64,000 nucleotides of DNA from an uncultured bacterium (GTDB lineage: Bacteria; Abyssobacteria; SURF-5). A model generated the notes under the pieces. It ran no database searches. It was not told the origin of the DNA and saw only the letters and a list, made by a program, of their open reading frames with translations. The translations under genes and the position numbers were made by a program. The DNA lies in NCBI GenBank assembly GCA_964607485.1, contig CAZSKP010000015.1, positions 32,001 through 96,000 of the forward strand. The letters run 5' to 3'. Below, one piece after another: positions 17,029 through 32,965 of this stretch (within the stretch, counting starts at the first letter, position 1; every line of letters starts with the position of its first letter).

Positions 17029-17080
17029 GCGCCGATCACCCCTTTTTCACGCGTCCGTACCGGATTTCGTACTAGGAAAC

Positions 17081-17110
17081 ATAATAGCACAATATAATGA
17101 GGTATGTCAA
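17081..17110 (-). promoter_or_regulatory. Putative sigma70 promoter for ftsK
   Basis: TTGACA-N18-TATTAT with an extended TG on the minus strand. Confidence 0.5.
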
Positions 17111-17160
17111 GGGAAATGGGCGCTAAAATGCGACATCTTGCGGTGTCAAGAGGCAGACCG

Positions 17161-17604
17161 TCAGACGCCCGTGTGGCCGAAGCCGCCGGGACCGCGGGGG
17201 GTGGGGTCGAGGTCGGATGTCTCCTCGAGGGCGACCGGGGCGACGGGGGCTATTATCAACTGCGCGATGCGGTCGCCGCGCTTGAGCGTGACCGGCTCGC
17301 GGCCGAGGTTGACGAGAATGACCTTGAGCTCGCCCCGGTAATCGGCGTCGATTGTGCCGGGCGCGTTGATAATGGTGAGTCCGTGGTTGGCCGCCAGCCC
17401 GCTCCGGGGACGCACCTGGCCTTCATAGCCGGGCGGGATGGCGAAGGCGAAGCCGGTCGGGACGAGCCCGGTCGAGCCGGGGGATATGCTGAGCGGCCCG
17501 TCGAGCGCCGCCATGAGGTCCAGCCCGGAGCTGTGTTCGCTCATCTTCTTCGGGAGCGGCAGGTCGGGATTATGCGGAAGTCGTTTTATTTTGACGGTAA
17601 CCAT
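17161..17604 (-). CDS. dut: dUTP pyrophosphatase
   Basis: [26 protein letters not shown] and [10 protein letters not shown] motifs. Confidence 0.96.
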
Positions 17605-17733
17605 GTCCGCAAAATTGGGTTAAAAGGGGAAAAGGGGAAAAACAACGACTCCGCAACTGAACATCATGAATCCCGAACTCTAAACCCTAAATCAATATCC
17701 CCTTTCGCCCTTCGCCTTGCTCCTTTCGCCTTT

Positions 17734-18972
17734 CTAAAGCTCCCGGAGGTCGAGCTTCTTGAGTGGGCCGAGGGCGACCACGTTGAGGACCTCATCCCGG
17801 AACAGTTCATGCGCGAGGTCTCTGATCTCGTCCGCGGTCACACTATCGATCTTGCGCATGATGGTCTGCAGGCCCTCGACGCGGTCGAGCGCGAGTATCG
17901 AACGCGCCAGGCGCATCATGCGTCCCGACGTGCTTTCCAGCGACAGCACGATGTTGCCCTTGAGCTGTTCCTTTGCGCTCCTGAGCTCGTCGTCGGGGAC
18001 CTTTCTCCTTTTCATTCTCGCCATCTCATCGAGGATGATATCAGAGGCCTTCTGCGTCTGCTTGGGGTTGAGCGCGGCGTACACGCCCAGCAGGCCCGTG
18101 TTTTCGTAGGAACTCAGAAACGTGTTGATCTGGTATGCCAGCCCCTCGTCCTCTCTCACGCGCTGATAGAGTCTCGAGGTCGAAGAGCCGCCGAGGATGT
18201 TGGAGAGCAGGTTGAACGAATAGCGCTTGTCGTCGCTCGCGCTCACCCCGGGCACGCCGAGACAGAGGTGCACCTGCCCGATCCGACGGTGGAATATCCT
18301 GTTGGCCGCCCGCACCTTGGGCGGCGGGTAAGCGTGCCGATTGTCCGATCCCCTCAGCCCGCCGAAGTGCTTTTCGCAGAGTTTTGTGAGCGATTCATCT
18401 TTGAAGTGGCCGGCGGCTGCGATGAGCACGTTTGAGGGGACATACCAGCGATGGTAGTAATCCCTCACGACTCGCCGGTTCAGCCTGGACAGCGCGCGCT
18501 TTGAGCCCGTTATCGGAAAGCCGAGGGAATGTCTCCGCCACATGACCGAAGAGAGCAGGTCCACCACGTGTTCTTCAGGCGCGTCTATGTAAGATTGAAT
18601 CTCTTCGGCGACGACGGCCTTTTCTTTTTCGAGGTCGCGGAACGTGGAATTGAGCAACACATCGGCCAGAATCTCCACGGCCACGTCGATGTGCGTATCG
18701 AGGATTTTGGCGTACAGACACGTGTACTCGCGGCTGGTAAAGGCGTTGGCCGAGCCCCCCATGCCCTCGAGCAGCTCCATTATCTGGCGTGCGGTGCGGG
18801 TCTTTGTTCCCTTGAAGAACAGGTGCTCGAGCAGATGCGAGACCCCGTTGACCTCCGGGGTCTCGTTCACCGACCCCGCCCGGATCCATACACCGAGCGT
18901 CGCCGATTTGAAATGGGGTAGCCGCTCCGTTACGAGTTCGATTTTATTTGAGAGGCGGTGTCGTCTCAGCAA
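17734..18972 (-). CDS. M16 family zinc peptidase
   Basis: Inverted zinc motif HLLEHLFFKGT, NAFTSRE; usual position downstream of pnp. Confidence 0.92.
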   Translation of the reverse strand: MLRRHRLSNKIELVTERLPHFKSATLGVWIRAGSVNETPEVNGVSHLLEHLFFKGTKTRTARQIMELLEGMGGSANAFTSREYTCLYAKILDTHIDVAVEILADVLLNSTFRDLEKEKAVVAEEIQSYIDAPEEHVVDLLSSVMWRRHSLGFPITGSKRALSRLNRRVVRDYYHRWYVPSNVLIAAAGHFKDESLTKLCEKHFGGLRGSDNRHAYPPPKVRAANRIFHRRIGQVHLCLGVPGVSASDDKRYSFNLLSNILGGSSTSRLYQRVREDEGLAYQINTFLSSYENTGLLGVYAALNPKQTQKASDIILDEMARMKRRKVPDDELRSAKEQLKGNIVLSLESTSGRMMRLARSILALDRVEGLQTIMRKIDSVTADEIRDLAHELFRDEVLNVVALGPLKKLDLREL

Positions 18973-18975
18973 TTC

Positions 18976-21084
18976 TCAATTTCCTGCGCCCACTTCTTTG
19001 TCGGCGGCCCGCTTGCTCAGGTTGATGCGGTTCTGTCGGTCTATCTCGATACACTTGACCGTCACGGTGTCGCCCTCTCTCAGGACGTCTTCGACCCGGC
19101 GGACGCGATGGTCGCTGAGCTCCGAGATGTGGACGAGGCCCTCCTTGCCGGGCAGAATCTCGACGAAAGCGCCGAATTTGAGAACGCGCTTGACCTTGCC
19201 GGTGTATATCTTGCCCACCTCGGCGTCCTCGACCAGTGCGCGTATCGTGTTGTACGCTTTCTCGCCCGCCTCCGAGTTCACGGCGGCGATGAGCACGCGC
19301 CCGTCGTCCTCCACGTTTATCTCAGCTCCGGTTTCGGCCACGATGCCGCGAATCACGCGTCCTCCCGGCCCGATGACGTCGCGAATCTTCTCGGGGTCAA
19401 TGCGCATGTGGATTATCTTCGGGGCGTGCTTGGATATCTCGGCTCTCGGCGCCGCTATGGCCTCGAGCATTTTTTCGAGGATGAAGTTGCGGCCCTCGCG
19501 AGCCTGCTCGAGCGCCCGGGAGAGAATTTCCAGGTCGAGGCCCTCCGTCTTTATGTCGAGTTGAAAGCCGGTGATCCCGTTCTTGCTGCCGGCGACCTTG
19601 AAGTCCATGTCGCCGAGGTAGTCTTCGATTCCCAGGATGTCGCTCAAGATGACGGCCTCGCCGCCTTCCTGCACCAGCCCCATCGCGATCCCGGCGACGG
19701 GCGCCTTGATGGCGACGCCGGCGTCCATAAGCGACAACGTAGCGCCGCAGACGGTCGCCATGGACGAGGAACCGTTGGATTCGAGGATGTCCGACACCAC
19801 GCGAATGGTATATGGAAATTCCTCGAACGAGGGCATCATGCTGACGAGCGAGCGTTCGGCGAGCGCGCCGTGGCCTATCTCGCGTCGTCCGGGGCCCCGG
19901 ATGGGTCGTACCTCGCCGACGCTGTACGGCGGGAAATTGTAGTGGAGCATGAACGTCTTCTTGTATTCGCCGAAAAGCGAATCCATTATTTGCTCGTCGG
20001 TCGAGGTACCGAGCGTCGTCGCGACGAGGGCCTGAGTTTCTCCCCGCGTAAACAGCGACGAGCCGTGCACCCTCGGGAGCAGTCCGATCTCGCAACTTAT
20101 CGGCCGGATCTCTTTCGGCCCTCGGCCGTCGGCCCTCAGTTTGTCTTTCAGTATCATGTTGCGGAGCAACTTCTTTTCGAGGCTGCCGAAAGCGGCTTTG
20201 ATTTGGGCGACTTCCTCTTCTTTGGCGTCGGGAAAGCGCTTCATGGTCTCTTCGAGCAGATGGTCGGTTTGTTCGCGGCGCTTGAGCTTATCGGCAACCC
20301 TGAATATTTCCATAAGCTTGGCGCTCGCGGATGACTCGACTTGCGCGATGATGTTCGCGTCGAGAACCACCTGCGGCGCAGGCAGCTTGAACTTGCCGCA
20401 GCGCGCCACCAGTTCCTCCTGCATCTTGATCGTGTCCTTGAGCATCTGATGGCCGAATTCGAGAGCGGCGATCATCGTCTCTTCATTGACTTCCTTGGCG
20501 CCTCCCTCGACCATCATTATTGCGTTCTTCGTGCCCGCAATCACGAGGTCGATGTCGCTCAGTTCGAGGTCTTTATAACTTGGGTTGACGACAAATTCGC
20601 CGTTGATTCTTCCCACTCTGACCGCGCCGATTATCTTCGTGAAGGGAATCTGCGAGATGGCCAGGGCCGCCGAAGCGCCTATTATCGACAACACGTCGGG
20701 GTCGTTTTCCTGGTCGTGCGAAATGACGGTCGCCATTATCTGCGTTTCGTTGAAGTAGCCGTCGGGGAACAGCGGTCTCAACGGCCTGTCGATGAGCCTG
20801 GAGGTCAGCGTCTCCTTCTCGCTGGGTCTTCCTTCTCGTTTGAAGAATCCGCCCGGAATCTTTCCCGCGGCGTACGTCTTCTCTCGATAATCGACGGTAA
20901 GCGGCAGGAAATCGATTCCCTCGCGGATGTCGGATGAAGCCACGGCGGTCACCAGGACGGCGGTATCGGCGTAAAATACACATGCGGCGCCATCGGCCTG
21001 CTTAGCCATGTGGCCGGTTTCAATTACCAGGTTGTGCCTTCCAAGCTTGGTTTCTACTTTCTCAATCATTACCGGTTTCTCCAT
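18976..21084 (-). CDS. pnp: Polyribonucleotide nucleotidyltransferase
   Basis: FLPLTVDY, RREIGHG, SNGSSSMA and GDMDFKVAG motifs; KH and S1 domains. Confidence 0.98.
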   Translation of the reverse strand: MEKPVMIEKVETKLGRHNLVIETGHMAKQADGAACVFYADTAVLVTAVASSDIREGIDFLPLTVDYREKTYAAGKIPGGFFKREGRPSEKETLTSRLIDRPLRPLFPDGYFNETQIMATVISHDQENDPDVLSIIGASAALAISQIPFTKIIGAVRVGRINGEFVVNPSYKDLELSDIDLVIAGTKNAIMMVEGGAKEVNEETMIAALEFGHQMLKDTIKMQEELVARCGKFKLPAPQVVLDANIIAQVESSASAKLMEIFRVADKLKRREQTDHLLEETMKRFPDAKEEEVAQIKAAFGSLEKKLLRNMILKDKLRADGRGPKEIRPISCEIGLLPRVHGSSLFTRGETQALVATTLGTSTDEQIMDSLFGEYKKTFMLHYNFPPYSVGEVRPIRGPGRREIGHGALAERSLVSMMPSFEEFPYTIRVVSDILESNGSSSMATVCGATLSLMDAGVAIKAPVAGIAMGLVQEGGEAVILSDILGIEDYLGDMDFKVAGSKNGITGFQLDIKTEGLDLEILSRALEQAREGRNFILEKMLEAIAAPRAEISKHAPKIIHMRIDPEKIRDVIGPGGRVIRGIVAETGAEINVEDDGRVLIAAVNSEAGEKAYNTIRALVEDAEVGKIYTGKVKRVLKFGAFVEILPGKEGLVHISELSDHRVRRVEDVLREGDTVTVKCIEIDRQNRINLSKRAADKEVGAGN

Positions 21085-21191
21085 TCTCAGTTCGGGTCAT
21101 ATTTATCTAAAGTCCGCATTGGACATGTTTCCCTTCCGGGCGGAATCGTTGCGTTTTCCTCGGCATGGATATGGCGGCGGAACGGGTCATG

Positions 21192-21461
21192 CTATTTCCG
21201 GAGGCCGAGGTCGCCGATGATTTTGCGGTAGCGTTCAATATCTTTTTGCTTCAGGTAGTTCAGAAGGCTGCGCCTTCGTCCGACCATCTTCAACAGGCCG
21301 CGGCGCGAATGGTGGTCCTTCTTGTGCGTCTCGAAGTGGTTGGTCAGCCCGTTAATGCGTTCGGTGAGCAGGGCGATCTGGACTTCCGGCGAGCCGGTGT
21401 CGCCGTCGTGAACTCGGTACTTGTTGATAATCCTGTGTTTTTCCTCTTTGGTGATCGTCAT
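21192..21461 (-). CDS. rpsO: 30S ribosomal protein S15
   Basis: [27 protein letters not shown] at 21461 preceded by AAGGAGG. Confidence 0.97.
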
Positions 21462-21560
21462 CGATGTTTCTCCTCCTTTTTGGTGGTTTATCCCCATTCC
21501 CAAGTGTGGCGTCGGAGTGTCGCCGACCTAGTGAATGGTTCCGAAGCTGCTCCGAGCGGG
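21462..21560 (-). promoter_or_regulatory. Possible S15 autoregulatory leader RNA
   Basis: ~100-nt structured spacer (GTCGG..CCGAC stem) 5' of rpsO, where S15 leaders normally lie; not model-verified. Confidence 0.3.
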
Positions 21561-22745
21561 CTATCGATCGGTGAGAGCCTCGATTCCGGGGAGTTTCTTG
21601 CCCTCCAGAATCTCGAGCGATGCGCCGCCGCCCGTGGAAATGTGAGACATTTTGCCGGACAGGCCGAATTGAGTTATGGCAGCGGCGGTGTCTCCCCCTC
21701 CTATGACAGAGGTGGCATCGGAATCGGCCACGTACTGCGCAATCCTTCGTGTCCCCTCTGCAAACGGCTTCATCTCGAACGCGCCGAGCGGCCCGTTCCA
21801 CACAACGGTTGCGGCGGCGTCGAGTTCGCGGCAAAACAGGTCGATGGTCTTCGGCCCAATGTCGAGCCCCATCCATCCAGCGTCGATGTCTTCTCCTTCC
21901 GTCACTTTGACGTTGGCGTTCTCGCTAAACTTTTCTGCGATTACATTATCGACAGGCAAGATGAACGCCTTCTTGAGACGCTTCGCCTTGTCTAAGGCCT
22001 CGCGGGCGACATCCATCTTGTCTTCTTCGAAAAGCGAATTTCCTATCGAGTGGCCCCGCGTTCGAAGGAACGTGTACGCCATGCCTCCGCCGATAAGAAA
22101 CTTGTCGGCTTTGTCCATCAGGCTGTTTATCGCTCCGATCTTGTCCGATACCTTCGCGCCTCCGAGTATCGTCACGAACGGCCTGACGGGACTGTTGAGC
22201 ACCCTCGAGAAATATTCGATCTCCTTCCCCATGAGGAGGCCCGCCACCGATTTGTCAACGAACCTGGTGATGCCCTCGGTCGAGGCGTGGGCGCGGTGGG
22301 CGGTCCCGAAGGCGTCGTTGACGTATATGTCGGCCAGCTTGGCCAACGCTTTGGCAAAATATTCGTCGTTCGCCTCTTCCTGCTCGTGGAAACGCAGGTT
22401 CTCGAGCAGAACGACGTCGCCCGGCTTCATGCCGGATACGGCTTTCTCGACGTCCTCTCCCACGCAGTCATCGACCTTCAGCACGGGCCTGCCCAGCAGT
22501 TCGCTCAGCCGCTTCGCCACGGGGTTCATCCGGAGTTTTTCCACCACCTTGCCCTTGGGACGGCCGAGATGGGACGCGAGTATGGCTTTTCCGTTGCGGT
22601 CGATGACGTAGCGTATCGTCGGGATGGTCTTGGATATCCGCGTGTCGTCCGAGACGCTCCCGTTCTCCAGGGGAACATTGAAATCGACGCGGATGAAGAC
22701 CCTCTTGCCGTCGAGCGGAACATCTTTTATGGTAAGCTTGTTCAT
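21561..22745 (-). CDS. pgk: Phosphoglycerate kinase
   Basis: RVDFNVP, SHLGRP, LLENLRF, DAFGTAHRAHAS and STGGGASL motifs. Confidence 0.98.
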   Translation of the reverse strand: MNKLTIKDVPLDGKRVFIRVDFNVPLENGSVSDDTRISKTIPTIRYVIDRNGKAILASHLGRPKGKVVEKLRMNPVAKRLSELLGRPVLKVDDCVGEDVEKAVSGMKPGDVVLLENLRFHEQEEANDEYFAKALAKLADIYVNDAFGTAHRAHASTEGITRFVDKSVAGLLMGKEIEYFSRVLNSPVRPFVTILGGAKVSDKIGAINSLMDKADKFLIGGGMAYTFLRTRGHSIGNSLFEEDKMDVAREALDKAKRLKKAFILPVDNVIAEKFSENANVKVTEGEDIDAGWMGLDIGPKTIDLFCRELDAAATVVWNGPLGAFEMKPFAEGTRRIAQYVADSDATSVIGGGDTAAAITQFGLSGKMSHISTGGGASLEILEGKKLPGIEALTDR

Positions 22746-22766
22746 TGACAGCTTTCACGTCATGCG

Positions 22767-23765
22767 CTAGCCGGCCATTCTTATAATCAGATCCACGCAG
22801 CGCTTCGAGTAGCCCCATTCGTTGTCGTACCAGGACACGACCTTGAACATCTTCGAGCCCATGGTCATGGTGAGTTGGGCGTCGAAAATGGACGAGTGCG
22901 GGTTTCCTATTATGTCGACCGACACCACCGGGTCCTCGCAGTATTCTATGATGCCCTTGTGCGTCGTCTCGGCCGCCTTCTTCATCACCCGGTTTATCGC
23001 ATCCACCGACACATCCTTTTTCGCTATCGCGACAAGGTCCGTCACCGAGGCGTCCTGAACGGGCACACGGAGCGCCATTCCGTCCAGCTTGCCGTTGAGC
23101 TCGGGAATCACCTTGCCCACCGCCTTGGCCGCGCCCGTAGTCGTGGGCACGATGGAAACGGCTGCCGAGCGTGCCCGCCTGAGGTCCTTGTGCGGCGCGT
23201 CAACAAGCCGCTGGTCGGCGGTGTATGCGTGCACCGTCGTTATCAGTCCCCACTCTATCGTGAACGCCTTGTTCAGCACATTCGCCATCGGGGCCAGACA
23301 GTTGGTCGTGCACGACGCGTTGGAAACGATTGTATGCTCCGGCTTCAGCGCGACATCGTTCGCTCCGAGCACTATCATCGCGTCCACGTCGCCCTTCGGA
23401 GGAACGGTCAGCAGAACCTTCTTGGCGCCCGCCTTGACATGCTTTGCGCAGTCGTCGCGCTTGCGAAAGATGCCCGTGGATTCCACAACGACTTTTACAT
23501 CAAGGTCCTTCCACGGCAGTTTCGCCGGGTCGCGCTCGGCCAGCACCTTCACCTGCTTCTTGCCCACGACCAGTGCGCCGTCCTTGACTGAGACCTGTTC
23601 CGGGAACCGACGGTGGGTGGAATCGTATTTAAGAAGATGGGCCAGTGTAGAGGCATCGGTGATATCGTTGACGGCAACCACTTCGATTTCGGGGTGTTCG
23701 CGCGTGGCCCGATAAACCATGCGCCCTATTCGTCCAAATCCGTTGATTCCGACTCTGATGGCCAT
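22767..23765 (-). CDS. gap: Glyceraldehyde-3-phosphate dehydrogenase, type I
   Basis: GINGFGRIGR, ASCTTNCL and WYDNEWGY; ATG at 23765. Confidence 0.98.
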   Translation of the reverse strand: MAIRVGINGFGRIGRMVYRATREHPEIEVVAVNDITDASTLAHLLKYDSTHRRFPEQVSVKDGALVVGKKQVKVLAERDPAKLPWKDLDVKVVVESTGIFRKRDDCAKHVKAGAKKVLLTVPPKGDVDAMIVLGANDVALKPEHTIVSNASCTTNCLAPMANVLNKAFTIEWGLITTVHAYTADQRLVDAPHKDLRRARSAAVSIVPTTTGAAKAVGKVIPELNGKLDGMALRVPVQDASVTDLVAIAKKDVSVDAINRVMKKAAETTHKGIIEYCEDPVVSVDIIGNPHSSIFDAQLTMTMGSKMFKVVSWYDNEWGYSKRCVDLIIRMAG

Positions 23766-23953
23766 CTTTTCCCCTTTCACTAGGTTTTTTCTGCCCATAA
23801 ACCTTCTAATATATCCAGCAATTATGTCACAAATGAAAAGAGAAGTCAATCGCCCCGGCGTGGGGGTTCAGCGGCGCTTCGGCGGAGTTGCTTCCTCAAA
23901 CGAAGAGTGTTGCGGTTTCCTGCGATGGCCTGCGAAGGTGTAGGGAGATGATT

Positions 23954-24536: not shown

Positions 24537-25160
24537 TTATTTCTGTTCGTCCAGCTTGACGCGGGTGCTGATGAACACGTGGTCGTCCTCTATCGAGTAG
24601 GCGAGACCGGTCTGCTGACAGATGCGCGTTATGATGGTCCTGAGCGGCAGCGGGTTGTCTGTCCTGATGCTGACTTCCGAATCCAGCAGGCCCTTGGATT
24701 CGGCGAGCACCGTCTCATCCACTATGATGTTCACATCGGTCAAGAATGTAAGCGACTTGGCGACGTTGCGGACGTCCTCCTCCGAGAAATCCACCTGAAC
24801 CAGTTGATTCAGCTTCTGGTAAAACTTGTCCTGGGCCTCGCCCTTGTCCTTTATCTCTTCGATGACTTTCTTGCAGCACTCTATCGATTCATCCACCATG
24901 CGATCGATGCCGTGTGGACGCTCGTCGGGCAGGTTGGGATAATCTTTCCAGATGTTCTCGTACCCGCGGAGCGCCTCTCTGTACTTCCGCAGCGCGAGCG
25001 CGTAGTCCTTTCCCTCGAGCGCTTCCGCAGCCTGTTCCTCTATGGGTTTCACCTCGTGCAGAAACACGAACAGCGCGGATTTTTGAATCTCGAACGCCCC
25101 GACCTCGACCGAGGTCATGCACGACAACAGGACGATGAGAAGCAACGTCGCTCGCTTCAT
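24537..25160 (-). CDS. Exported hypothetical protein with a C-terminal STN-like (secretin/TonB N-terminal) domain
   Basis: Signal peptide, helical region, then VDFSEEDVRNV..VNIIVD..PLRTIITRICQQTGLAYSIED. Confidence 0.6.
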   Translation of the reverse strand: MKRATLLLIVLLSCMTSVEVGAFEIQKSALFVFLHEVKPIEEQAAEALEGKDYALALRKYREALRGYENIWKDYPNLPDERPHGIDRMVDESIECCKKVIEEIKDKGEAQDKFYQKLNQLVQVDFSEEDVRNVAKSLTFLTDVNIIVDETVLAESKGLLDSEVSIRTDNPLPLRTIITRICQQTGLAYSIEDDHVFISTRVKLDEQK

Positions 25161-25885
25161 CGGCTTTCACCCGACAGCAAATTGCGGAAAGTTCCCGAAA
25201 TGTTGTCGTAGATGTGCTCCAACCCATGTTTGCCGAACTCTATCAGCTTCAGCGGATTGGCGGCGATCTCGAGGCGGCCGGCCTTGACGGCGTCGATTAT
25301 GGCCTCCGTGTTTTTTTCGGCCTCGACGAGCGAGTAGGCCGAGCCGAATTTCTCCAGGTGATGACAATCGGACGTGCACACCAGCGGGAGCCCATGCTTC
25401 GCGGCCGTCCGGAGGGCGAACATGTTGAAATTTATCCGGCTGTGATAGAACCATGAAAATTCTAACGCATCAAACACATCGATGTTTCTTCCCACAAGCC
25501 ACATGAGAGAAGAAAAGTCGGGGAAATATGGATGAGGAGCCACGACCATATTCTCAGGAGTTCGGAGCCTCCTCAGGTCGTCAAGGCTGCGTGCCTCGAG
25601 GATTTCATCGCGCGCGTTCACAACAAGCACGTGCTTTCCCCGGATATTCGCCTCGACGCCCGGAATGAGAACAATTCCCCGCTCACGCGCATAGTCCCGC
25701 AGATAGCTGCTGAAAGAAACGGCGTTGTGATTCGTGATGCTTATCGCGTCGAATCCCAGGTAGTACGCCTTATCTATCAACTCACAGCTTGTGTGCAGGA
25801 CTGGCTCTTCCGGGTCGTCTGCAGTGTGTGTATGAAGGTCGACTTTCAGAAATTTCTTGGGCATCTCAACTTCGATTTCTCTCAT
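25157..25885 (-). CDS. PHP-domain phosphoesterase
   Basis: DLHTHT, ITNHN, GVE, PHP and SDCH metal ligands; start at 25885 or 25864, downstream of the predicted promoter. Confidence 0.85.
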   Translation of the reverse strand: MREIEVEMPKKFLKVDLHTHTADDPEEPVLHTSCELIDKAYYLGFDAISITNHNAVSFSSYLRDYARERGIVLIPGVEANIRGKHVLVVNARDEILEARSLDDLRRLRTPENMVVAPHPYFPDFSSLMWLVGRNIDVFDALEFSWFYHSRINFNMFALRTAAKHGLPLVCTSDCHHLEKFGSAYSLVEAEKNTEAIIDAVKAGRLEIAANPLKLIEFGKHGLEHIYDNISGTFRNLLSGESR

Positions 25886-25905
25886 CAGGCGAAGCTTCTC
25901 CCACA

Positions 25906-25934
25906 ATTTTAGTTGTGCAAAACAGATTTGTCAA
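25906..25934 (-). promoter_or_regulatory. Putative sigma70 promoter for the PHP gene
   Basis: TTGACA-N17-TAAAAT on the minus strand. Confidence 0.6.
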
Positions 25935-25963: not shown

Positions 25964-25980
25964 TGCATAATTTGTGCCAG
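25964..25980 (-). promoter_or_regulatory. Putative sigma54 (-24/-12) site
   Basis: CTGGCACAAATTATGCA on the minus strand: TGGCAC with GG-N10-GC spacing. Confidence 0.45.
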
Positions 25981-26007
25981 AAAAAGATTCGCTCAGCCTC
26001 CCGACGA

Positions 26008-26036
26008 TTGACTTTTCATATTTCGGGAAATATAAT
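26008..26036 (+). promoter_or_regulatory. Putative sigma70 promoter for the pseudokinase-FHA-B-box-rhomboid operon
   Basis: TTGACT-N17-TATAAT. Confidence 0.7.
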
Positions 26037-26081
26037 GCGGAAGGAGCGGAGTGTGTCCCAACTCTGAGGGAGGGGGCTCTG

Positions 26082-28286
26082 GTGTTCGATATTGGCCAGT
26101 GGATTGAAGACCAATATCTCGTCCTCGAACGACACCGCGGCAGGCGGTGGACCGTCTATGTGGTGCAGGACCGCATTTCGGAGAATGTGTTCGTCATCAA
26201 GAGACCCTCGGAAGTTCTGCTTCCCGACCCCCTCGCGGCGGACCATTTCGTCAACGAAGCGAGAATCTGGATAAACATCGGCGAATGCGATGAGGTCGTC
26301 AACGCGTACCTTATCAAGGAGTTTGAGGGAATACCCCACCTGTTCCTTGAGTACACTGACGGCCCCAGTCTCGAAGACATCCTAAGCTCGCGCCCCGGGA
26401 AACCGCTCCCCACCGACCAGGCCGTCGCCCTCATGAGGCAGCTCATTAACGGCATGAAGTTTCTTCATTCGGCGAGTCTGACGCCTGGAAATCGGGGTGT
26501 CGTACACGGCAGCCTGACCCCCCACGCCATCTTGACCAAATCGGGGAACATCAAGATAACCGACGTCGGCCTGGCCCACGCGTTGCGCCAGTCTTCCAGG
26601 ATGCTTAATGCCGGCCACTTTCTCTGGGACATTTCATACATGGCGCCCGAGCAGTTACAGGACCTCCGCGAGGCCGACAAACTGACCGATATTTACTCGT
26701 TCGGTGCAATAATGTACGAAGTCGCGACGGGTACGTCGCCGATGATGGGGAAAAAACCCGAGGACCCCTTGAGCGACATCGTCCGGTTCGAGCCGGCTCA
26801 CCCCCGGACGCGCAATCGCTCGTGCCCTCGGTGGCTGGAGGAAACGATTCTGAAATGCATGGCGCGGGAGCGGGCAAACCGCTTCCAGAGCTTCGAGCTG
26901 ATTGACGCGTTCGTGAGCGAAGTGCTCAGGGGAGAGGAGGAAGCCTCGCCGGCTCGTGACGCGAAGGAGGAAACGGATTCCGCCCATACCTCGCGGGTGG
27001 CGCGTGTGCGCGGAGTGGCGAAGAAGGAATCGCGCCGGCTCGACCACTATTACGTCGGCGTCGAACACCTGATGCTCGGCCTCATTGCCGAAGAGGAAAG
27101 CGTCGTTGTGAGTTGTTTCGGCGACGCGGTAGACGCGGAACGGCTCCGTTCGGAAATTCTCTCCCATTTGCCGAAGGGGGAGGGGCCGTGGTATTGGGAC
27201 GATATAAGAAAGACCCCGCGGTACAAACGCGTAATGAAGCTGGCGCGCAAGATAAAACGGGAACACAGCGACGACCGCATGCTCCCACAACACATCCTCC
27301 TCGCGATACTGAAGGAGGGACGGAACGTGCCGGTCCGCGTGCTCAAGGGATTGAACGTCGATGTCAAAGCCGCGGCCCGAAACCTGCGGCGGGAGATGAA
27401 GCGCAGAAGGCCGGCAATCTTCGTTGCCGATTCCGAACCTGGCGCGATTAGTTTCACGATCAAGGTGGCCTGCACGACCGACATCCCCTGTTCCATTCCC
27501 TTCGTCGGCCGGCGCTCGGAACTGGAAAGAGCTCGCGGGCTGCTCCTCGACGACAGAAGAAGCGTCATGATAGTGGGCGAACCGGGGGTCGGAAAGACGG
27601 CCTTCGTGCACGAACTTGAGTGTCTTGTTTCGGAAGCGTCGGGCGACGCAGGGCGCGAGAGCGGCGGCCTGGTCAAACTTCACGTCGCGTCCCTCATCGC
27701 GAGCACCGAGGGAGGGGAACAGATTATCTCTAATCTCACGGACGCCATCAACTCGGTCGTCGGTTCCAAATCCATCCTGGTGATAGAGGACCTTCCGGTG
27801 GTTGTCGGCCTCGGCGGAAAACTGCCGCCGGGGGCTGTCGGCAGGATGCTCGAAGAGTACATCGTGTCCAAAGGGCTGGTCGTCGTGGCAACGACCACGC
27901 GCGCAGGGTACGTGTCGTGCGAAGCGGAGCACGAGAACCTGGTCCCGTTTCTCGAAGTGATAAACCTGCGCGAGCCTTCGAGTGAAGAGACGTTCGAGAT
28001 GCTGGTGGCGGCGAAGGAGACTCTTGAGAACGAGCACTCCGTCAGGATCGTCGATGAGGCGCTGACCGCCTCGGTCGACCTTTCGCGAGAGATCCAGGGG
28101 AGAGCGCTTCCTGCAAGGGCGTTCGAGCTGCTCGACCGCGCATGCGTCGGCGCGAGGTTGAGCGCAAGCACGCCTGAGCAGGCTCGCGAGCAGATCGTCA
28201 TCGATGCGGAACGAGTGGAATATGCCCTGGCCGAAGCTCGGCAGCTCGAGCGGGCTCGGTCCGACCAAGAGCGTGGAGTCGTATAG
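26082..28286 (+). CDS. Fusion of Ser/Thr pseudokinase, double Clp-N repeat and a single degenerate ClpA/B/C-type AAA+ domain
   Basis: Hanks kinase fold (FVIK, LEY, YMAPE, DIYSFG) with HGSLTPHA/DVG; Clp-N repeats (HYYVGVEHLMLGL, PQHILLAIL); FVGR, GEPGVGKT and RALPARAFELLD; GTG 26082 follows GGAGG and the promoter. Confidence 0.85.
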   Translation: MFDIGQWIEDQYLVLERHRGRRWTVYVVQDRISENVFVIKRPSEVLLPDPLAADHFVNEARIWINIGECDEVVNAYLIKEFEGIPHLFLEYTDGPSLEDILSSRPGKPLPTDQAVALMRQLINGMKFLHSASLTPGNRGVVHGSLTPHAILTKSGNIKITDVGLAHALRQSSRMLNAGHFLWDISYMAPEQLQDLREADKLTDIYSFGAIMYEVATGTSPMMGKKPEDPLSDIVRFEPAHPRTRNRSCPRWLEETILKCMARERANRFQSFELIDAFVSEVLRGEEEASPARDAKEETDSAHTSRVARVRGVAKKESRRLDHYYVGVEHLMLGLIAEEESVVVSCFGDAVDAERLRSEILSHLPKGEGPWYWDDIRKTPRYKRVMKLARKIKREHSDDRMLPQHILLAILKEGRNVPVRVLKGLNVDVKAAARNLRREMKRRRPAIFVADSEPGAISFTIKVACTTDIPCSIPFVGRRSELERARGLLLDDRRSVMIVGEPGVGKTAFVHELECLVSEASGDAGRESGGLVKLHVASLIASTEGGEQIISNLTDAINSVVGSKSILVIEDLPVVVGLGGKLPPGAVGRMLEEYIVSKGLVVVATTTRAGYVSCEAEHENLVPFLEVINLREPSSEETFEMLVAAKETLENEHSVRIVDEALTASVDLSREIQGRALPARAFELLDRACVGARLSASTPEQAREQIVIDAERVEYALAEARQLERARSDQERGVV

Positions 28287-28637: not shown

Positions 28638-28655
28638 ACGAGGAGCGTGACGTCC

Positions 28656-30557
28656 ATGGCACATGAGAAGGAGCCTGCGGCCGCCCGAAATCGTACGAAA
28701 CACCGCCGCAAGCTTCCCTGCGCCAACCACCCGAGAAATCCCGCCGCAGCCCGCTGCGAGGTCTGTGGAAATCCGATATGCAGGGAGTGCGTGCAGTTCT
28801 ACGACGGCGCGCACATCTGCGGTGAGCTGTGCTGGAACAAGAAGCGGTTGGACGAATCGGCAAAAGCCTCCAAAGAGGACAGGCTCCGGCGGCGACAAAA
28901 GGAAAAGAAAGCAAACCGTGCCGTGACGGTGGGGCTGTTGGCGGCGCTGGTCGTGGTTCTGGGGGCGGTCGGCGCTTTCGTGTACACTGTCGTGTCCGAC
29001 CACTCGGGAGACAAAGCCTGGGAATTCGAGAATCCGGGAGGGTCCTTCGATTACGCGGTCCGACCGAACCTGAACTCCGTCTTCCTTCTGTCGGCGGACG
29101 GAAACGTAGAGACAATCGACGCCTTGACCGGCGTGCTAAAATGGCGCGTCAAATTGCCCGAGAGGTCCGGCCACTCGGAACTGATGATAATCGATGAAGA
29201 CCACTGTCTCGTCTATTTCGGGAACACGGTCTTGCTCTGTAAATCGGGCCGAGCGGCGCCGGCGTGGGAATTCAGTGCACCACAGCCTTTTCTGTGCGCC
29301 GAGCCGGTGCATTTGGATGACCGTCTCTACGCGGTAAGCTCCCCGGTCGGCTCCTTCTTCCAGGTGTTTCCCGAGCTGGAAGAGATGAGGTCTGCGCTCT
29401 TGATGTCTCCCGAGCTCGAATCGCTGAGGTCCGTGGTCCGGGCGCCGAGGCCGCAGTCAGATTCGGCCGGCGCAATCCCGCCCCCACGGGAACAACCGGA
29501 GACGGCCGGCGAGCAAGCCGAAGTGGAGCGGCTCTCCACGGTCAGCGCCGTGGACATGGCCTCCGGCAAAGGACTGTGGGACACCGAACTGGTAGGTCTT
29601 AGGGTCGAGGGCCTGCTGGCGGATGAAAGTCGGGTCTACGCGGTCGGCTATCAGTGGAGAGAATACGGGAGGTACGGCGCGGCCCCGGAACCGGAAGAGC
29701 CCAAACAGGAGGACTCCGCCGGCGACCAAGAAGCCTCACACGTCAGCTCCACCCAGCTTTGGGCGCTGAACGCGACAACCGGCGAGCCGGAGTGGAAGCT
29801 GGAAGGGATGGGCAATTTTCTGGTTTCTCCCATGAAGAGCGACGAGGGCATCGTCTTCTCGACAATGGAGAATATCTACTTGATCTCGCCCGAGGGAAAG
29901 ATAAAATGGAAATATTCCCTCGGCGAGAGAGGTGTTTACGCGTTTCAGCCGAGCTATGACAAGCTCTTTGTCTCAACGGGCGACGGATTCCTTGTCTGCA
30001 TCGACCTCGCCTCCGGACGCGAAAAGTGGACGACCGAGGTCGGCATGGGAGCCGACAGGATAGTCGTCAGTTCTCCGCTCGCATACGTCTCGTCACTGGT
30101 CAAGGTGGAGAAGGAAGCCCGGAGAGTAATAATGACGAAACGCTGGAAGGGGTCGGAGGACCTGTTGAAAAAAGCGCTGAAGCGAGACGAAGTGAGCTAT
30201 GAAAGAGTCATCCACGGCATCGACGTCGAGAGCGGTGAGACGCGCTGGTCGATTCCGAAGATCGAGGGCGAGTTCGAATATGGGCGGGGATTTCTGTACG
30301 CGTTGCGCTATTTCGAGAGGCTGCAACTCCTCGATGCCTCGGTCGACTCCAGCCAGATAGCCAAGACGGTGTCGAATCTGGGCGCGTACGACTGCCTGAC
30401 CGGCGAGAAAGTCTGGGAGACCGGTATTGACGGCTACGCATCGGACCTGCGTCTGACCCCATTCGTCGGCATCGTGAAGTCACGCTCGCAAGTGCTTACC
30501 GTCGGCGCGGCGGCCGAACAGCGTCCCGGACGCCTGATCGGAATTTCTCTCGAGTGA
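28656..30557 (+). CDS. B-box-type zinc finger, single TM and PQQ/BamB-like beta-propeller protein
   Basis: CANH..CEVCGNPICREC..CGELC, hydrophobic segment VGLLAALVVVLGAVGAFVY, repeated (A/I)D..(T/S)G...W propeller motifs; ATG 28656 after GAGGAG. Confidence 0.8.
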   Translation: MAHEKEPAAARNRTKHRRKLPCANHPRNPAAARCEVCGNPICRECVQFYDGAHICGELCWNKKRLDESAKASKEDRLRRRQKEKKANRAVTVGLLAALVVVLGAVGAFVYTVVSDHSGDKAWEFENPGGSFDYAVRPNLNSVFLLSADGNVETIDALTGVLKWRVKLPERSGHSELMIIDEDHCLVYFGNTVLLCKSGRAAPAWEFSAPQPFLCAEPVHLDDRLYAVSSPVGSFFQVFPELEEMRSALLMSPELESLRSVVRAPRPQSDSAGAIPPPREQPETAGEQAEVERLSTVSAVDMASGKGLWDTELVGLRVEGLLADESRVYAVGYQWREYGRYGAAPEPEEPKQEDSAGDQEASHVSSTQLWALNATTGEPEWKLEGMGNFLVSPMKSDEGIVFSTMENIYLISPEGKIKWKYSLGERGVYAFQPSYDKLFVSTGDGFLVCIDLASGREKWTTEVGMGADRIVVSSPLAYVSSLVKVEKEARRVIMTKRWKGSEDLLKKALKRDEVSYERVIHGIDVESGETRWSIPKIEGEFEYGRGFLYALRYFERLQLLDASVDSSQIAKTVSNLGAYDCLTGEKVWETGIDGYASDLRLTPFVGIVKSRSQVLTVGAAAEQRPGRLIGISLE

Positions 30558-30583: not shown

Positions 30584-31708
30584 ATGACCGGGAACAGGAG
30601 AAAAGAGGCAGGTCCCTCCCGCGGCGAGGCCGTCGCCAACTACATCACCGACCTTCTTAAGAACTCTATCGAGATAGTCACCGACTATTCCTGCAAGTAT
30701 CATCCCGACCGCGCCGCCACCGCCGTCTGCGAATGGTGCAGCGCCGACCTTTGCTCCGATTGCGCGCACGTTCGAGGCCATCGGCTCGTGTGCCGCAATT
30801 GCATGGGCTCACTCGACAGGACGTTTGCGGGAACGGGCGCCGCGTCGGTTCTGACGCGGCTGCTCACGCACCCAATTGTGGTCGCATTGGTGCTGACGAC
30901 ATTGCTCGGAGGCCTGCTCGTCGGCCTCGGCAGGATTCATCGCAAGGGACTGCTGGGGGAAGTTCCGGCGACCGCCAGCGGGGTCGAAAAACAGTTTCGT
31001 CTGAAGCTCGTCCTGTATGCGCAGAAAGCCGACCGCATCGAAACCCACGCCGATGAACTCCAGAAAGTCGGCCGCACCGATGAGGCGGCGGCGGACTATG
31101 ACCGCGCCAGGTCCATCCACGAGATGCTGGCCCGCGAGGCCGCCGGCAGATGGGAGGAGCAGGCTTTCACTCTGGCGAGAGCGAGAATCCTGGAAAAAAC
31201 GGGCGAACGCGCCTATGCCCAAGGGCTGTACGAAAACGTCGCCAACCTGCCCGGCGCAGACAAAACCTATCCCGTCATCGCGCAGTTTCATCTGGCCAAA
31301 CTCCAGGAAAAGACGAACCCGGAAGAGGCGGTGGCGACGTACACGCGACTCCTGCGCGACGTCAACTTCGTTCCCGACAATTTCTCCCGCGCGGTCAACA
31401 TGATGGCGCATTCGCAGGGCGCTTACAACTACGACAGCCGGATACAATTTCACACGCGCACCGACTTCGATTTCGACACGGTCAAAGTGGAGACGCTGCT
31501 GGAGATGGGTCGGCTGTTGGCTGCTATGGGACGTACCGACGAGGCTGCGTTCAGACTGGGGCAGGCGGCCAACGAGGGATTTGGCACGAAGCTGGGCGAG
31601 CAGGCCACGGCTGAACTCAGGAAGCTCCACACCGTCGATGTGCCCGAGGAACCTCCCGAAGAAGAGGCCGAGAAAGAAGAAGAACTGACCATAACTCACT
31701 TCGACTGA
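30584..31708 (+). CDS. B-box-type zinc finger, single TM and TPR-like helical-repeat protein
   Basis: CKYH..CEWCSADLCSDC..CRNC, TM IVVALVLTTLLGGLLVGL, TPR-like repeats (GRTDEAA twice). Confidence 0.78.
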   Translation: MTGNRRKEAGPSRGEAVANYITDLLKNSIEIVTDYSCKYHPDRAATAVCEWCSADLCSDCAHVRGHRLVCRNCMGSLDRTFAGTGAASVLTRLLTHPIVVALVLTTLLGGLLVGLGRIHRKGLLGEVPATASGVEKQFRLKLVLYAQKADRIETHADELQKVGRTDEAAADYDRARSIHEMLAREAAGRWEEQAFTLARARILEKTGERAYAQGLYENVANLPGADKTYPVIAQFHLAKLQEKTNPEEAVATYTRLLRDVNFVPDNFSRAVNMMAHSQGAYNYDSRIQFHTRTDFDFDTVKVETLLEMGRLLAAMGRTDEAAFRLGQAANEGFGTKLGEQATAELRKLHTVDVPEEPPEEEAEKEEELTITHFD

Positions 31709-31744: not shown

Positions 31745-32965
31745 ATGCTTTTTCCGGTCAAAATTGAGACAGAGATAGAAAAGTTTCCGATCTTCACCTA
31801 TCTCATAATAGTCGCAAACGCGGTCGTATTCCTGTCCATGCGGTTCCTTCCCGCGTCGGCGCTGGAAATGGCGTATTACGATTACGGATTCATCCCCGAC
31901 CACATCGACGCCGTCTCGATGTTCACGTCGCTGTTTGTCCACGCGGGCTGGCTGCACATCGTTGGCAACATGTATTTTCTGTGGCTGTTTGGGCGGGCGG
32001 TGGAACAGCGATTGAACAGAGTGCTGTACGTGATCCTGTACTTCAGCAGCGGAGCGGCAGGCGGCCTCCTGCATGCGGGACTGACGCCCGCGTACATGGC
32101 CGACATTCCCTGTATCGGCGCCTCGGGCGCAATCTCGGGTGTGCTCGGCACCTACATGATTCTGTATCCGTGGGAGGAAGTGTACTGCATCTACTTTTCT
32201 TTCACGATGAGATATGCCACTTCCATAACTCTGTCCAGCGTCTGGGTGCTGGGCTCGTGGTTCGTGCTGCAGTTTGCGGACGCGCTCTGGTTCACGCCGC
32301 AGACGGCGGAAGCTACGGTCGCATTCTGGGCTCACATCGGCGGGTTCGTGTTTGGCGGGCTGGTTGCGGCGGTCCTGAAGTACTCCGCCGCCTTTGCCGG
32401 TATGCTTCGCAGGCGTTCGGTCGTAATCGCACTCGAGGAATATTCCGACCTCCTCCACAAAGGCAGGACCGACGAGGCGGAGGAGAGATTGAAGACGGCC
32501 CTGAAGGCCGCACCATCGAACGCGCTCGTTCTCGGCGAGCTGGGAAGAATCGAGTTGCGCCGCGACAACCGGAGGGGTGCGCGAAAGCTGCTCCGCCGCT
32601 CCCTGAAGAAGGCTCTCAAGCAGAAGGACGACGCAAAAGCCGTGGCCGCATACTTTTCGTTGGTCGCGGCCCGGGAAGATCCTCCCAGCAACTCGCAGCG
32701 TCTCGTCATCGGCCGAAGGTTTGCGCGTTTGAAGAAGTACGGCCATGCCCTCGGAATCATGGGCGGCGCGTTCAAGCCCGACGCCGAGATGCACGGCCTG
32801 GATATGCTGCTGTACGAGATTGCGGAAATCTTCGCCGGCCCGCTGAAGGATTGGGGCCGTGCCGAGGCATCCTACAGGCTGCTGCGAGAGCTGTTTCCCC
32901 ATTCTCCCCGCAGTCTGGACGCGGAATACCAGCTTCGCAAGTTGCAGGCGAAAGGAAGGGCCTGA
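31745..32965 (+). CDS. Rhomboid intramembrane serine protease with C-terminal TPR region
   Basis: HAGWLHIVGNM, GASG catalytic Ser, AHIGG catalytic His; TPR-like tail. Confidence 0.92.
   Translation: MLFPVKIETEIEKFPIFTYLIIVANAVVFLSMRFLPASALEMAYYDYGFIPDHIDAVSMFTSLFVHAGWLHIVGNMYFLWLFGRAVEQRLNRVLYVILYFSSGAAGGLLHAGLTPAYMADIPCIGASGAISGVLGTYMILYPWEEVYCIYFSFTMRYATSITLSSVWVLGSWFVLQFADALWFTPQTAEATVAFWAHIGGFVFGGLVAAVLKYSAAFAGMLRRRSVVIALEEYSDLLHKGRTDEAEERLKTALKAAPSNALVLGELGRIELRRDNRRGARKLLRRSLKKALKQKDDAKAVAAYFSLVAAREDPPSNSQRLVIGRRFARLKKYGHALGIMGGAFKPDAEMHGLDMLLYEIAEIFAGPLKDWGRAEASYRLLRELFPHSPRSLDAEYQLRKLQAKGRA

Follow-up and report, generated by a model that had tools for sequence, protein, structure and literature searches.

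A conserved fusion of a pseudokinase with a ClpC-like N domain and a degenerate AAA+ module, a candidate signaling hub in an uncultured Abyssobacteria lineage

The 64,000-nucleotide stretch analyzed here (the window; positions 32,001 to 96,000 of the forward strand of contig CAZSKP010000015.1, GenBank assembly GCA_964607485.1) comes from an uncultured bacterium of the GTDB lineage Bacteria; Abyssobacteria; SURF-5, and carries a gene whose product joins a Hanks-type pseudokinase domain to a ClpC-type N domain and a degenerate first AAA+ module (D1) of the Clp/Hsp100 type. Residues needed for catalysis in the respective families are missing from both the kinase and the AAA+ module, and the gene stands at the head of an operon that also encodes an FHA-domain protein, two membrane proteins with zinc-finger-like modules and a rhomboid protease. 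Judging from sequence, predicted structure and gene order, we consider that the fusion is probably a non-catalytic hub, likely to bind nucleotide, which organizes an FHA-dependent, membrane-linked signaling module.

The architecture is apparent in a Pfam scan, which placed Pkinase at residues 24-272 (E 8.9e-26; 91.3 bits against a cut-off of 31.7), Clp_N in two stretches starting at residue 313 (E 8.3e-19) and AAA_lid_9 at residues 633-726 (E 7e-14). A preliminary description of this gene had proposed alignment against these same models, and all three were matched; the generic AAA model reached just E 0.11. AAA_16 covered the P-loop only, at 26.1 bits against a cut-off of 32.6, and the ATPase is of the Clp type. 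In NCBIfam, partial matches to ClpB, ClpA and ClpV1 (TIGR03345) extend across the N domain and D1, with the ClpB, ClpA and ClpV equivalogs far below threshold (86-100 bits against cut-offs of 885-1232). An AlphaFold2 model built from the family alignment has a mean predicted local distance difference test score (pLDDT) of 80.8 and a predicted template modeling score of 0.80, and a fold search with this model returned ClpC/Hsp104 N-D1 structures and PknB/Stk1 kinase domains (target-normalized template modeling score 0.78-0.85). Motifs were read from alignments residue by residue, with the solved kinase StkP as reference for the kinase domain and Bacillus subtilis ClpC for the Clp modules; the fusion is collinear with ClpC residues 9-441 (E 1e-33).

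Within the pseudokinase domain, the HRD motif aligns to HGS, such that the catalytic aspartate is replaced, and the glycine loop reads HRGRRWTV where StkP has GRGGMADV, with one glycine kept in HRGRRW in place of a GxGxxG pattern. Retained are the β3 lysine (FVIK; VAVK in StkP), the aspartate of the DFG motif, which reads DVG, and an APE motif (SPE in StkP). The kinase motif losses claimed in the preliminary description are thereby borne out, position by position. The same tendencies run through the family alignment, which comprises 28 sequences and was scored in 26 or 27 of them at some positions. An aspartate at the HRD position occurs in a single sequence of 28, the others having Asn (19), Gly (6), Ser (1) or Val (1), and the family consensus of the catalytic loop is IHGNLxPRNIL, accompanied by a partly degraded glycine loop. 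The DFG aspartate is present in 26/28, the β3 lysine in 26/26 and the equivalent of Asn171 in 21/28, the window copy having Ala at this last position. The αC-helix glutamate is found in the window copy alone (1/26), and its salt bridge with the β3 lysine is thus no feature of the family.

At the level of motifs, this family-wide pattern (β3 lysine and DFG aspartate kept, αC glutamate lost, Asp166 changed to Asn) matches that of the ATP-binding pseudokinases HER3 and JAK JH2. According to the available text of PMC4718504, these proteins carry Asn at Asp166 and lack the αC glutamate, keep the β3 lysine, Asn171 and the DFG aspartate, and have a partly degraded glycine-rich loop; HER3 binds ATP with a dissociation constant of about 1 uM and one cation, and both HER3 and JAK JH2 serve chiefly as allosteric partners, their activity being weak at best. 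The resemblance is convergent, since homology does not extend past the kinase fold. The window copy departs from the pattern, with Ser at the catalytic aspartate and Ala at Asn171, whereas most relatives fit it (Asn in 19/28 and 21/28, respectively).

The N domain consists of two Clp_N repeats. Its counterpart of ClpC E32 is kept in all 28 sequences (within GVEH), and the counterpart of E106 is Gln in 25/27, including the window copy (LPQH), and His in 2/27. As E32 and E106 are described in the available part of PMC12583610 as crucial determinants of the two phosphoarginine pockets of ClpC, the two-glutamate signature of a phosphoarginine reader is incomplete here.

In D1, the Walker A motif is the only one intact among Walker A, the Walker B DE pair, the arginine finger and the pore-loop tyrosine. 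The pore loop reads TEGGEQI in place of TKYRGEF and lacks the tyrosine, and the sensor-1 segment (ATTT) and the LPxxA segment of the lid are common to the fusion and ClpC. Because the ClpC match stops at about residue 441, the M domain is just a stub and there is no D2, hence no ClpP-docking loop; a Pfam scan of the fusion for a second AAA+ ring likewise gave no AAA_2 or ClpB_D2-small match. Across the family, the Walker A lysine is present in 25/26 and the Walker B DE pair in 0/26, being replaced by ED (19), EN (3), EG (2) or DD (2). At least one arginine occupies the finger positions in 10/26 and two do so in 1/26, the window copy having none, and the pore loop is acidic and variable and without KYR. 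With an intact P-loop and no catalytic glutamate, conserved arginine finger or pore tyrosine, D1 appears to resemble the Walker-B "trap" mutants used experimentally, and would be predicted to bind ATP, and possibly to assemble, but not to hydrolyze ATP or thread substrate. Nucleotide binding by the fusion is plausible because both the Walker A lysine and the β3 lysine of the kinase are almost always kept.

These alignments leave most of the preliminary description of a "doubly inactive" protein in place while refining it. Both modules do lack what their families need for catalysis, the Walker A motif is intact, the arginine-finger segment is lost, and the claimed absence of a second AAA+ domain and of a docking loop holds. 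The acidic pair of Walker B, however, is swapped rather than lost, and the kinase keeps its β3 lysine and DFG aspartate.

The fusion belongs to a sharply delimited family. A search of 5.8 billion clustered proteins yielded 27 relatives with 48-70% identity and E values no higher than 4e-149, all of them full-length or fragments of the same architecture, and the next match had an E value of 8.5e-38. The few relatives with source names are labeled Candidatus Abyssobacteria/Abyssubacteria or Hydrogenedentota. An exhaustive HMMER search of 1.84 billion representative proteins, run with no length filter, returned two full-length representatives and five fragments, below which scores drop steeply to ordinary kinases and Clp proteins. 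Among 269 fetched proteins, the combination of kinase, Clp_N and AAA was confined to this family, with 26 full or nearly full examples besides that of the window. The gene was found in 10 of the 11 species genomes of the phylum examined, as one match per genome; these ten are the source genome of the window and all nine others of its taxonomic family. No fusion ortholog was found in the single sister-family genome examined (96% complete), nor, with one query, was an ortholog of the propeller protein of the operon found in that genome.

In all ten genomes the frame is intact and free of internal stops. Selection was estimated pairwise by the Nei-Gojobori method in five genome pairs, in which the synonymous rate (dS) is at least 1 even within genera, so that the ratios of nonsynonymous to synonymous rates (dN/dS) are rough. 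They amount to 0.05-0.12 in Clp_N, about 0.10-0.23 in the kinase lobes and 0.18-0.33 in the AAA module, and to roughly 0.3-0.95 in the linker between kinase and Clp_N and in the C-terminal tail, with 0.5-0.95 in two of the three unstructured segments. Conservation is highest in the C-lobe of the kinase (RNRSCPRWLEETILKCMA...NRFQSF) and in the N domain, and among the folded modules it is lowest in D1. As far as these ratios allow, every folded module of the fusion is clearly under constraint by purifying selection, and the alignments identify it as a conserved family and not a case of local decay. The preliminary description had taken the intact frame as a sign of a retained non-catalytic protein, and this view gains from the finding that the substitutions are common to the relatives and that dN lies well below dS in the folded domains. 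Its suggestion that orthologs be compared for the same changes at low dN/dS gave a consistent outcome (HRD aspartate in 1/28, DE in 0/26, dN/dS of about 0.05-0.33 in folded domains), and the opposite picture, in which close orthologs keep HRD, DE and the paired finger arginines, is not the one observed (1/28, 0/26 and 1/26).

The fusion is the first of five co-directional genes separated by gaps of 0, 9, 26 and 36 nt. It is followed by the FHA-domain protein, in which the phosphothreonine-binding motifs GR, SxxH and NG are invariant in 9/9 orthologs and whose partial NCBIfam match to TagH (TIGR03354) is far under the cut-off, and then by the B-box/propeller, zinc-finger/TPR and rhomboid/TPR proteins. 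Synteny was examined at eight orthologous loci in eight other genomes, all within one taxonomic family. The FHA and B-box/propeller genes follow the fusion in 8/8 loci and the zinc-finger/TPR and rhomboid/TPR genes in 6/8. The two membrane proteins have related N-terminal modules of the form CxxH...CxxC...CxxC...C...C (28647-28850 and 30584-30800), which orthologs retain although the remainders of the two proteins are unlike (propeller in one, TPR in the other), and which look like paired cytosolic handles. The closest kinase domains outside the family, with 35-38% identity, occur in kinases fused to PQQ-like beta-propellers (P0142, P0144, P0167 and P0180). This is the type of propeller found as a separate protein in the fusion operon.

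Taken together, these features suggest how the fusion may work, probably as a cytosolic protein with little or no catalytic activity. Its kinase domain would be a pseudokinase of the HER3/JAK-JH2 kind that probably still holds nucleotide and offers a docking or allosteric surface, with no efficient phosphorylation. The ClpC-derived N domain, which keeps the glutamate of one of the two phosphoarginine pockets, may act as a protein- or phospho-ligand-binding head, and D1, with its P-loop kept, would bind ATP without threading, most likely for nucleotide-dependent assembly or switching. The fusion might then assemble the FHA reader, the two single-pass membrane proteins with their cytosolic zinc fingers and the rhomboid protease into an envelope-signaling complex, with an active Hanks kinase, of which the cell has many, supplying the phosphorylation input. 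Its position at the head of an FHA/zinc-finger/rhomboid operon, with no clp gene next to it among the 19 open reading frames (ORFs) that a Pfam scan covered at 14-42 kb of the window, points to signaling rather than proteolysis. Also in favor are the mycobacterial pseudokinase MviN as a precedent, the numbers of Pkinase and FHA matches in the genome and a second locus in which a kinase/Clp_N gene stands directly before an FHA-domain gene.

Several observations weigh against this proposal. The Walker A lysine is Ile in one relative and the Walker A threonine is Lys in another, and ATP binding by D1 may accordingly not be essential. The Ala at Asn171 and the Gly-poor, Arg-rich glycine loop of the window copy leave it less certain that its kinase domain binds nucleotide than one would expect from the family consensus. 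In the family alignment, no conserved Ser/Thr that could be an FHA target was found in the low-confidence loops and linkers of the fusion, and the FHA protein may therefore have another ligand. Nor do the N-terminal tails of the FHA protein and of both zinc-finger proteins hold a convincing conserved acceptor threonine; one invariant Thr does precede the zinc finger of the TPR protein. Finally, gene order was compared within one family, and the synteny may partly reflect common descent, although dS is saturated.

Other Clp, kinase and FHA genes of the genome bear on how the fusion is to be read. The same genome encodes an mcsA-like zinc protein, a McsB-type arginine kinase (351 aa) and ClpC (825 aa) in a row (contig C8, locus L022:1443-5511), and a Firmicute-style phosphoarginine/ClpC cassette is thus present in this uncultured lineage. 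Its ClpC carries both GTEH pocket motifs. Since these genes, and clpB and clpP as well, are present separately and intact, the fusion is an extra rather than a replacement. The fusion is 33% identical to this ClpC in Clp_N (E 1.5e-21) and 29% in the D1 part (E 8e-22), and both parts are farther from ClpB and from the Clp_N of a paralog, a pattern suggesting that an N-D1 stretch of ClpC was linked to a kinase as one contiguous piece. Pkinase matches number 27 in the genome, most of them scoring like active kinases, and FHA matches 17.

The paralog is encoded at a second locus (contig C20, L021:2763-8680) and is a 446-aa kinase/Clp_N protein with an active-looking kinase domain (HRDLKPSN, DFG) and a divergent Clp_N. 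An FHA-GAF-cyclase gene directly follows it, and before it lies a gene for a 964-aa membrane adenylate/guanylate-cyclase-like protein that ends in an active-looking kinase; the arrangement recurs in one of the two other genomes checked. This two-domain family is small and clade-restricted, with about 20 clusters before a steep drop. An origin of the fusion by addition of D1 to the kinase/Clp_N paralog is not supported, as the fusion Clp_N is nearer to ClpC than to the paralog Clp_N (E 8.5e-5); the two kinase domains are 35% identical. A further set, from the representative proteins (P0140, P0146, P0151, P0152, P0169 and P0176; 547-1064 aa), consists of six to eight Clp_N repeats and nothing else in Pfam, which is an unusual architecture.

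The preliminary description had offered a nucleotide-binding scaffold, or an adaptor or decoy for ClpC or ClpB. Nucleotide binding remains plausible in view of the retained lysines, and the adaptor or decoy half is made less likely by a context that points to signaling. In its fullest form, this alternative holds that the fusion is a decoy, adaptor or poison subunit of ClpC, which competes for phosphoarginine-tagged substrates or adaptors, or co-assembles into ClpC rings and slows them, with the pseudokinase conferring a response to signals. We regard this as possible but rather unlikely. Clp_N and D1 each have the ClpC of the same genome as their nearest counterpart, the presence of the mcsA-like, mcsB and clpC genes in a row together with clpP indicates that a phosphoarginine/ClpC system exists, the E32 equivalent is invariant, and mycobacterial ClpC2 offers a precedent in the accessible portion of PMC13345244. 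However, the second pocket glutamate is Gln or His throughout the sequences scored, and the fusion has no M domain, the element described in the available text of PMC12583610 as mediating MecA binding and the resting-state contacts of ClpC. The scanned ORFs around it include no clp gene, and the low conservation of D1 relative to the other folded modules is not what one would expect of a part that has to fit into ClpC rings. A more elaborate scheme would make the fusion a permanently ATP-locked ClpC N-D1 "trap" tethered to a HER3-like pseudokinase, which reads phosphothreonine through its FHA partner and phosphoarginine through its one N-domain pocket and holds or releases the zinc-finger tails, thereby gating rhomboid cleavage or a hand-over to ClpC/ClpP. 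This scheme is speculative and we give it little credence; if true, it would constitute an undescribed link between Hanks-type signaling, arginine phosphorylation and regulated intramembrane proteolysis.

Catalysis of an atypical kind is similarly improbable. The kinase domain might use alternative chemistry, as in the weak activity of HER3 and JAK2 JH2, and D1 might hydrolyze ATP slowly through its ED Walker B. The near-invariance of the β3 lysine and DFG aspartate would suit such an enzyme, as would the acidic Walker B pair in 21/26 sequences (ED or DD) and the listing of HER3 and JAK2 JH2, which share the Asp166-to-Asn change, as low-activity pseudokinases in the available part of PMC4718504. 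Yet the catalytic-base position varies among Asn, Gly, Ser and Val, the Asn171 equivalent is missing in 7/28 sequences, that of the window included, the second position of Walker B is Asn or Gly in 5/26, the finger arginine is absent in 16/26, and no pore-loop aromatic is present. Such variation of motif residues across the family is unlike that of catalytic residues under selection. The idea of lineage-specific decay, in which a recently inactivated gene is on its way to loss, draws on the number of lost catalytic residues, its sole support, and is contradicted by the data to the point of being hardly credible: the frame is intact and without internal stops in ten genomes, the substitutions are common to relatives of 48-70% identity, in every folded domain dN is far lower than dS, and the operon is conserved. 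The proposal of a non-catalytic signaling hub is therefore the one we retain as probable.

Comparison with characterized systems places the fusion among known types while setting it apart from each. With ClpC it shares the two-repeat N domain, P-loop, sensor-1, lid and domain order, but it differs in its front kinase domain, its ED Walker B, the Gln at the E106 site, the reduction of the M domain to a stub and the lack of the finger, KYR, D2 and docking loop. Mycobacterial ClpC2, which the available portion of PMC13345244 describes as non-proteolytic, with phosphoarginine binding connected to its activity, is likewise a ClpC N-domain homolog outside the unfoldase in a non-proteolytic role, but has neither a kinase domain nor an AAA module. 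The mycobacterial pseudokinase MviN recruits FhaA once phosphorylated by PknB (PMC12599244, in part) and so also pairs functionally with an FHA-domain protein; MviN, however, belongs to the ActPs3 family, in which all three catalytic motifs are lost, and is fused to a lipid II flippase, whereas the fusion described here has Clp modules. CP1 pseudokinases are linked to a predicted COG3899 ATPase, as the same partial source reports, and resemble the fusion as cytosolic kinases or pseudokinases physically joined to a P-loop NTPase module, but the CP1 ATPase is of the STAND/AAA_16 type and that of the fusion is of the Clp/Hsp100 type.

In the available text of bioRxiv 10.1101/2025.01.12.632604 and PMC12599244, each of the seven pseudokinase families published for bacteria involves loss of the VAIK lysine, and as the fusion family keeps this residue (26/26) it appears to fall outside that seven-family atlas classification. 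No Clp or AAA partners of pseudokinases were found in the accessible parts of these two sources, and no degenerate motifs or kinase fusions were found for ClpI in that of PMC10149685. A kinase or pseudokinase fused to Clp_N and AAA+ was not found described in the open-access literature and preprints; the supplementary domain tables of the kinase atlas, outside this coverage, might list one.

A further parallel lies in the threonine-phosphorylation pathway of type VI secretion. In that pathway (PpkA, Fha1, ClpV), a Hanks kinase, an FHA protein and an ATPase of the Clp family form a single regulatory module, with the difference that both the kinase and the ATPase are degenerate in the fusion. 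A type VI secretion context was rejected for the fusion, as the 19 scanned ORFs (14-42 kb of the window) include no structural genes of that system.

Coordinates of the fusion gene, its parts and its neighbors are collected in Table 1. The open frame extends over 25974..28286, with GTG 26082 in frame. Downstream of the promoter-like site by about 45 nt, this GTG corresponds to the MF(E/D)xGQW-equivalent start found in most orthologs of the fusion. GTG 25974 was rejected as the start, since the promoter-like site falls within the extension it would create and the extension is not common to most orthologs. From the promoter-like site, the Shine-Dalgarno-like sequence and the ortholog starts, the protein is taken to comprise 734 aa. 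The region contains six promoter-like sites, where shuffled sequences led to an expectation of 1.8.

The PHP-family phosphoesterase gene and the gene for the 207-aa protein lie upstream of the fusion in 7/8 orthologous loci, and a strong promoter-like site (TTGACA-17-TAAAAT, 25934-25906) faces this pair. Some PHP enzymes are protein phosphatases, and a link between the PHP protein and the module is for this reason possible. Farther upstream, at 14716-23849, are the housekeeping genes ftsK, pnp, pgk and gap, which support a chromosomal, non-mobile setting.

Table 1. Features of the fusion gene and its surroundings (positions in the window)
Feature	Coordinates	Strand	Remarks
207-aa protein with hydrophobic N-terminus	24537..25160	-	No Pfam match; weak NCBIfam match to a pilus outer-membrane protein
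PHP-family metallophosphoesterase	25157..25906	-	Divergent from the fusion
Sigma-70-like promoter, TTGACT-17-TATAAT	26008..26036	+	11/12 consensus matches; consensus match only
Shine-Dalgarno-like sequence, GAGGGAGGGGG	26066..26076	+	Before GTG 26082; read directly from the sequence
Fusion coding sequence: pseudokinase, Clp_N, degenerate D1 AAA+	26082..28286	+	734 aa plus stop
Hanks-type pseudokinase domain, residues 1-276	26082..26909	+	Lys40 (β3) and Asp161 (DVG) kept; glycine loop degenerate; no catalytic Asp
Catalytic-loop equivalent, HGSLTPHA	26505..26528	+	In place of HRDLKPQN (StkP); family consensus HGNLxPRN
Variable acidic linker, residues 277-303	26910..26990	+	Low-confidence model; pLDDT < 50 at residues 289-302; dN/dS 0.5-0.95
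ClpC-type N domain, two Clp_N repeats, residues 304-445	26991..27416	+	Most conserved part
Degenerate D1 AAA+ large subdomain, residues 473-632	27498..27977	+	ClpC alignment and fold match
Walker A, GEPGVGKT	27576..27599	+	Identical to ClpC; ClpC alignment
Walker B equivalent, ILVIEDLP	27774..27797	+	ClpC ILFIDEL; ED instead of DE
Arginine-finger segment, NLVPFLEV	27936..27959	+	ClpC LERRFQ reads LVPFLE; ClpC RR aligns to PF
AAA_lid_9 small subdomain and terminal helix	27978..28283	+	Helix aligns to the first part of the ClpC M domain; end of protein
Stand-alone FHA-domain protein, 116 aa	28287..28637	+	TTG-start ORF directly after the fusion stop codon
Membrane protein: N-terminal B-box-like zinc finger, hydrophobic segment, PQQ-like beta-propeller	28647..30557	+	Domain scans
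Membrane protein: N-terminal Cys/His-rich zinc-finger-like module, hydrophobic segment, TPR repeats	30584..31708	+	Domain scans
Rhomboid intramembrane serine protease with C-terminal TPR repeats	31745..32965	+	Last gene of the cluster

The ingredients of this system are known: bacterial pseudokinases, their pairing with FHA proteins, N-domain-only Clp paralogs and pseudokinase-ATPase fusions of the CP1 type. What we found undescribed, in the open-access literature and preprints, is their combination as a HER3-like pseudokinase and a catalytically stripped ClpC N-D1 half, conserved across a candidate phylum and placed first in a rhomboid-containing operon. As the lineage is known just from metagenome-assembled genomes, the practical reach of the finding is limited and heterologous expression will be needed. 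Little is understood of bacterial pseudokinases, and even less of dead AAA+ modules; the fusion joins one of each and has long been under selection, with synonymous sites saturated between genera. With its likely partners defined within one operon, it provides a compact test case for the role of a silent kinase fold in bacteria, for the uses to which a Clp N-D1 half may be put without unfolding, and for a connection between Ser/Thr signaling and the phosphoarginine/ClpC system.

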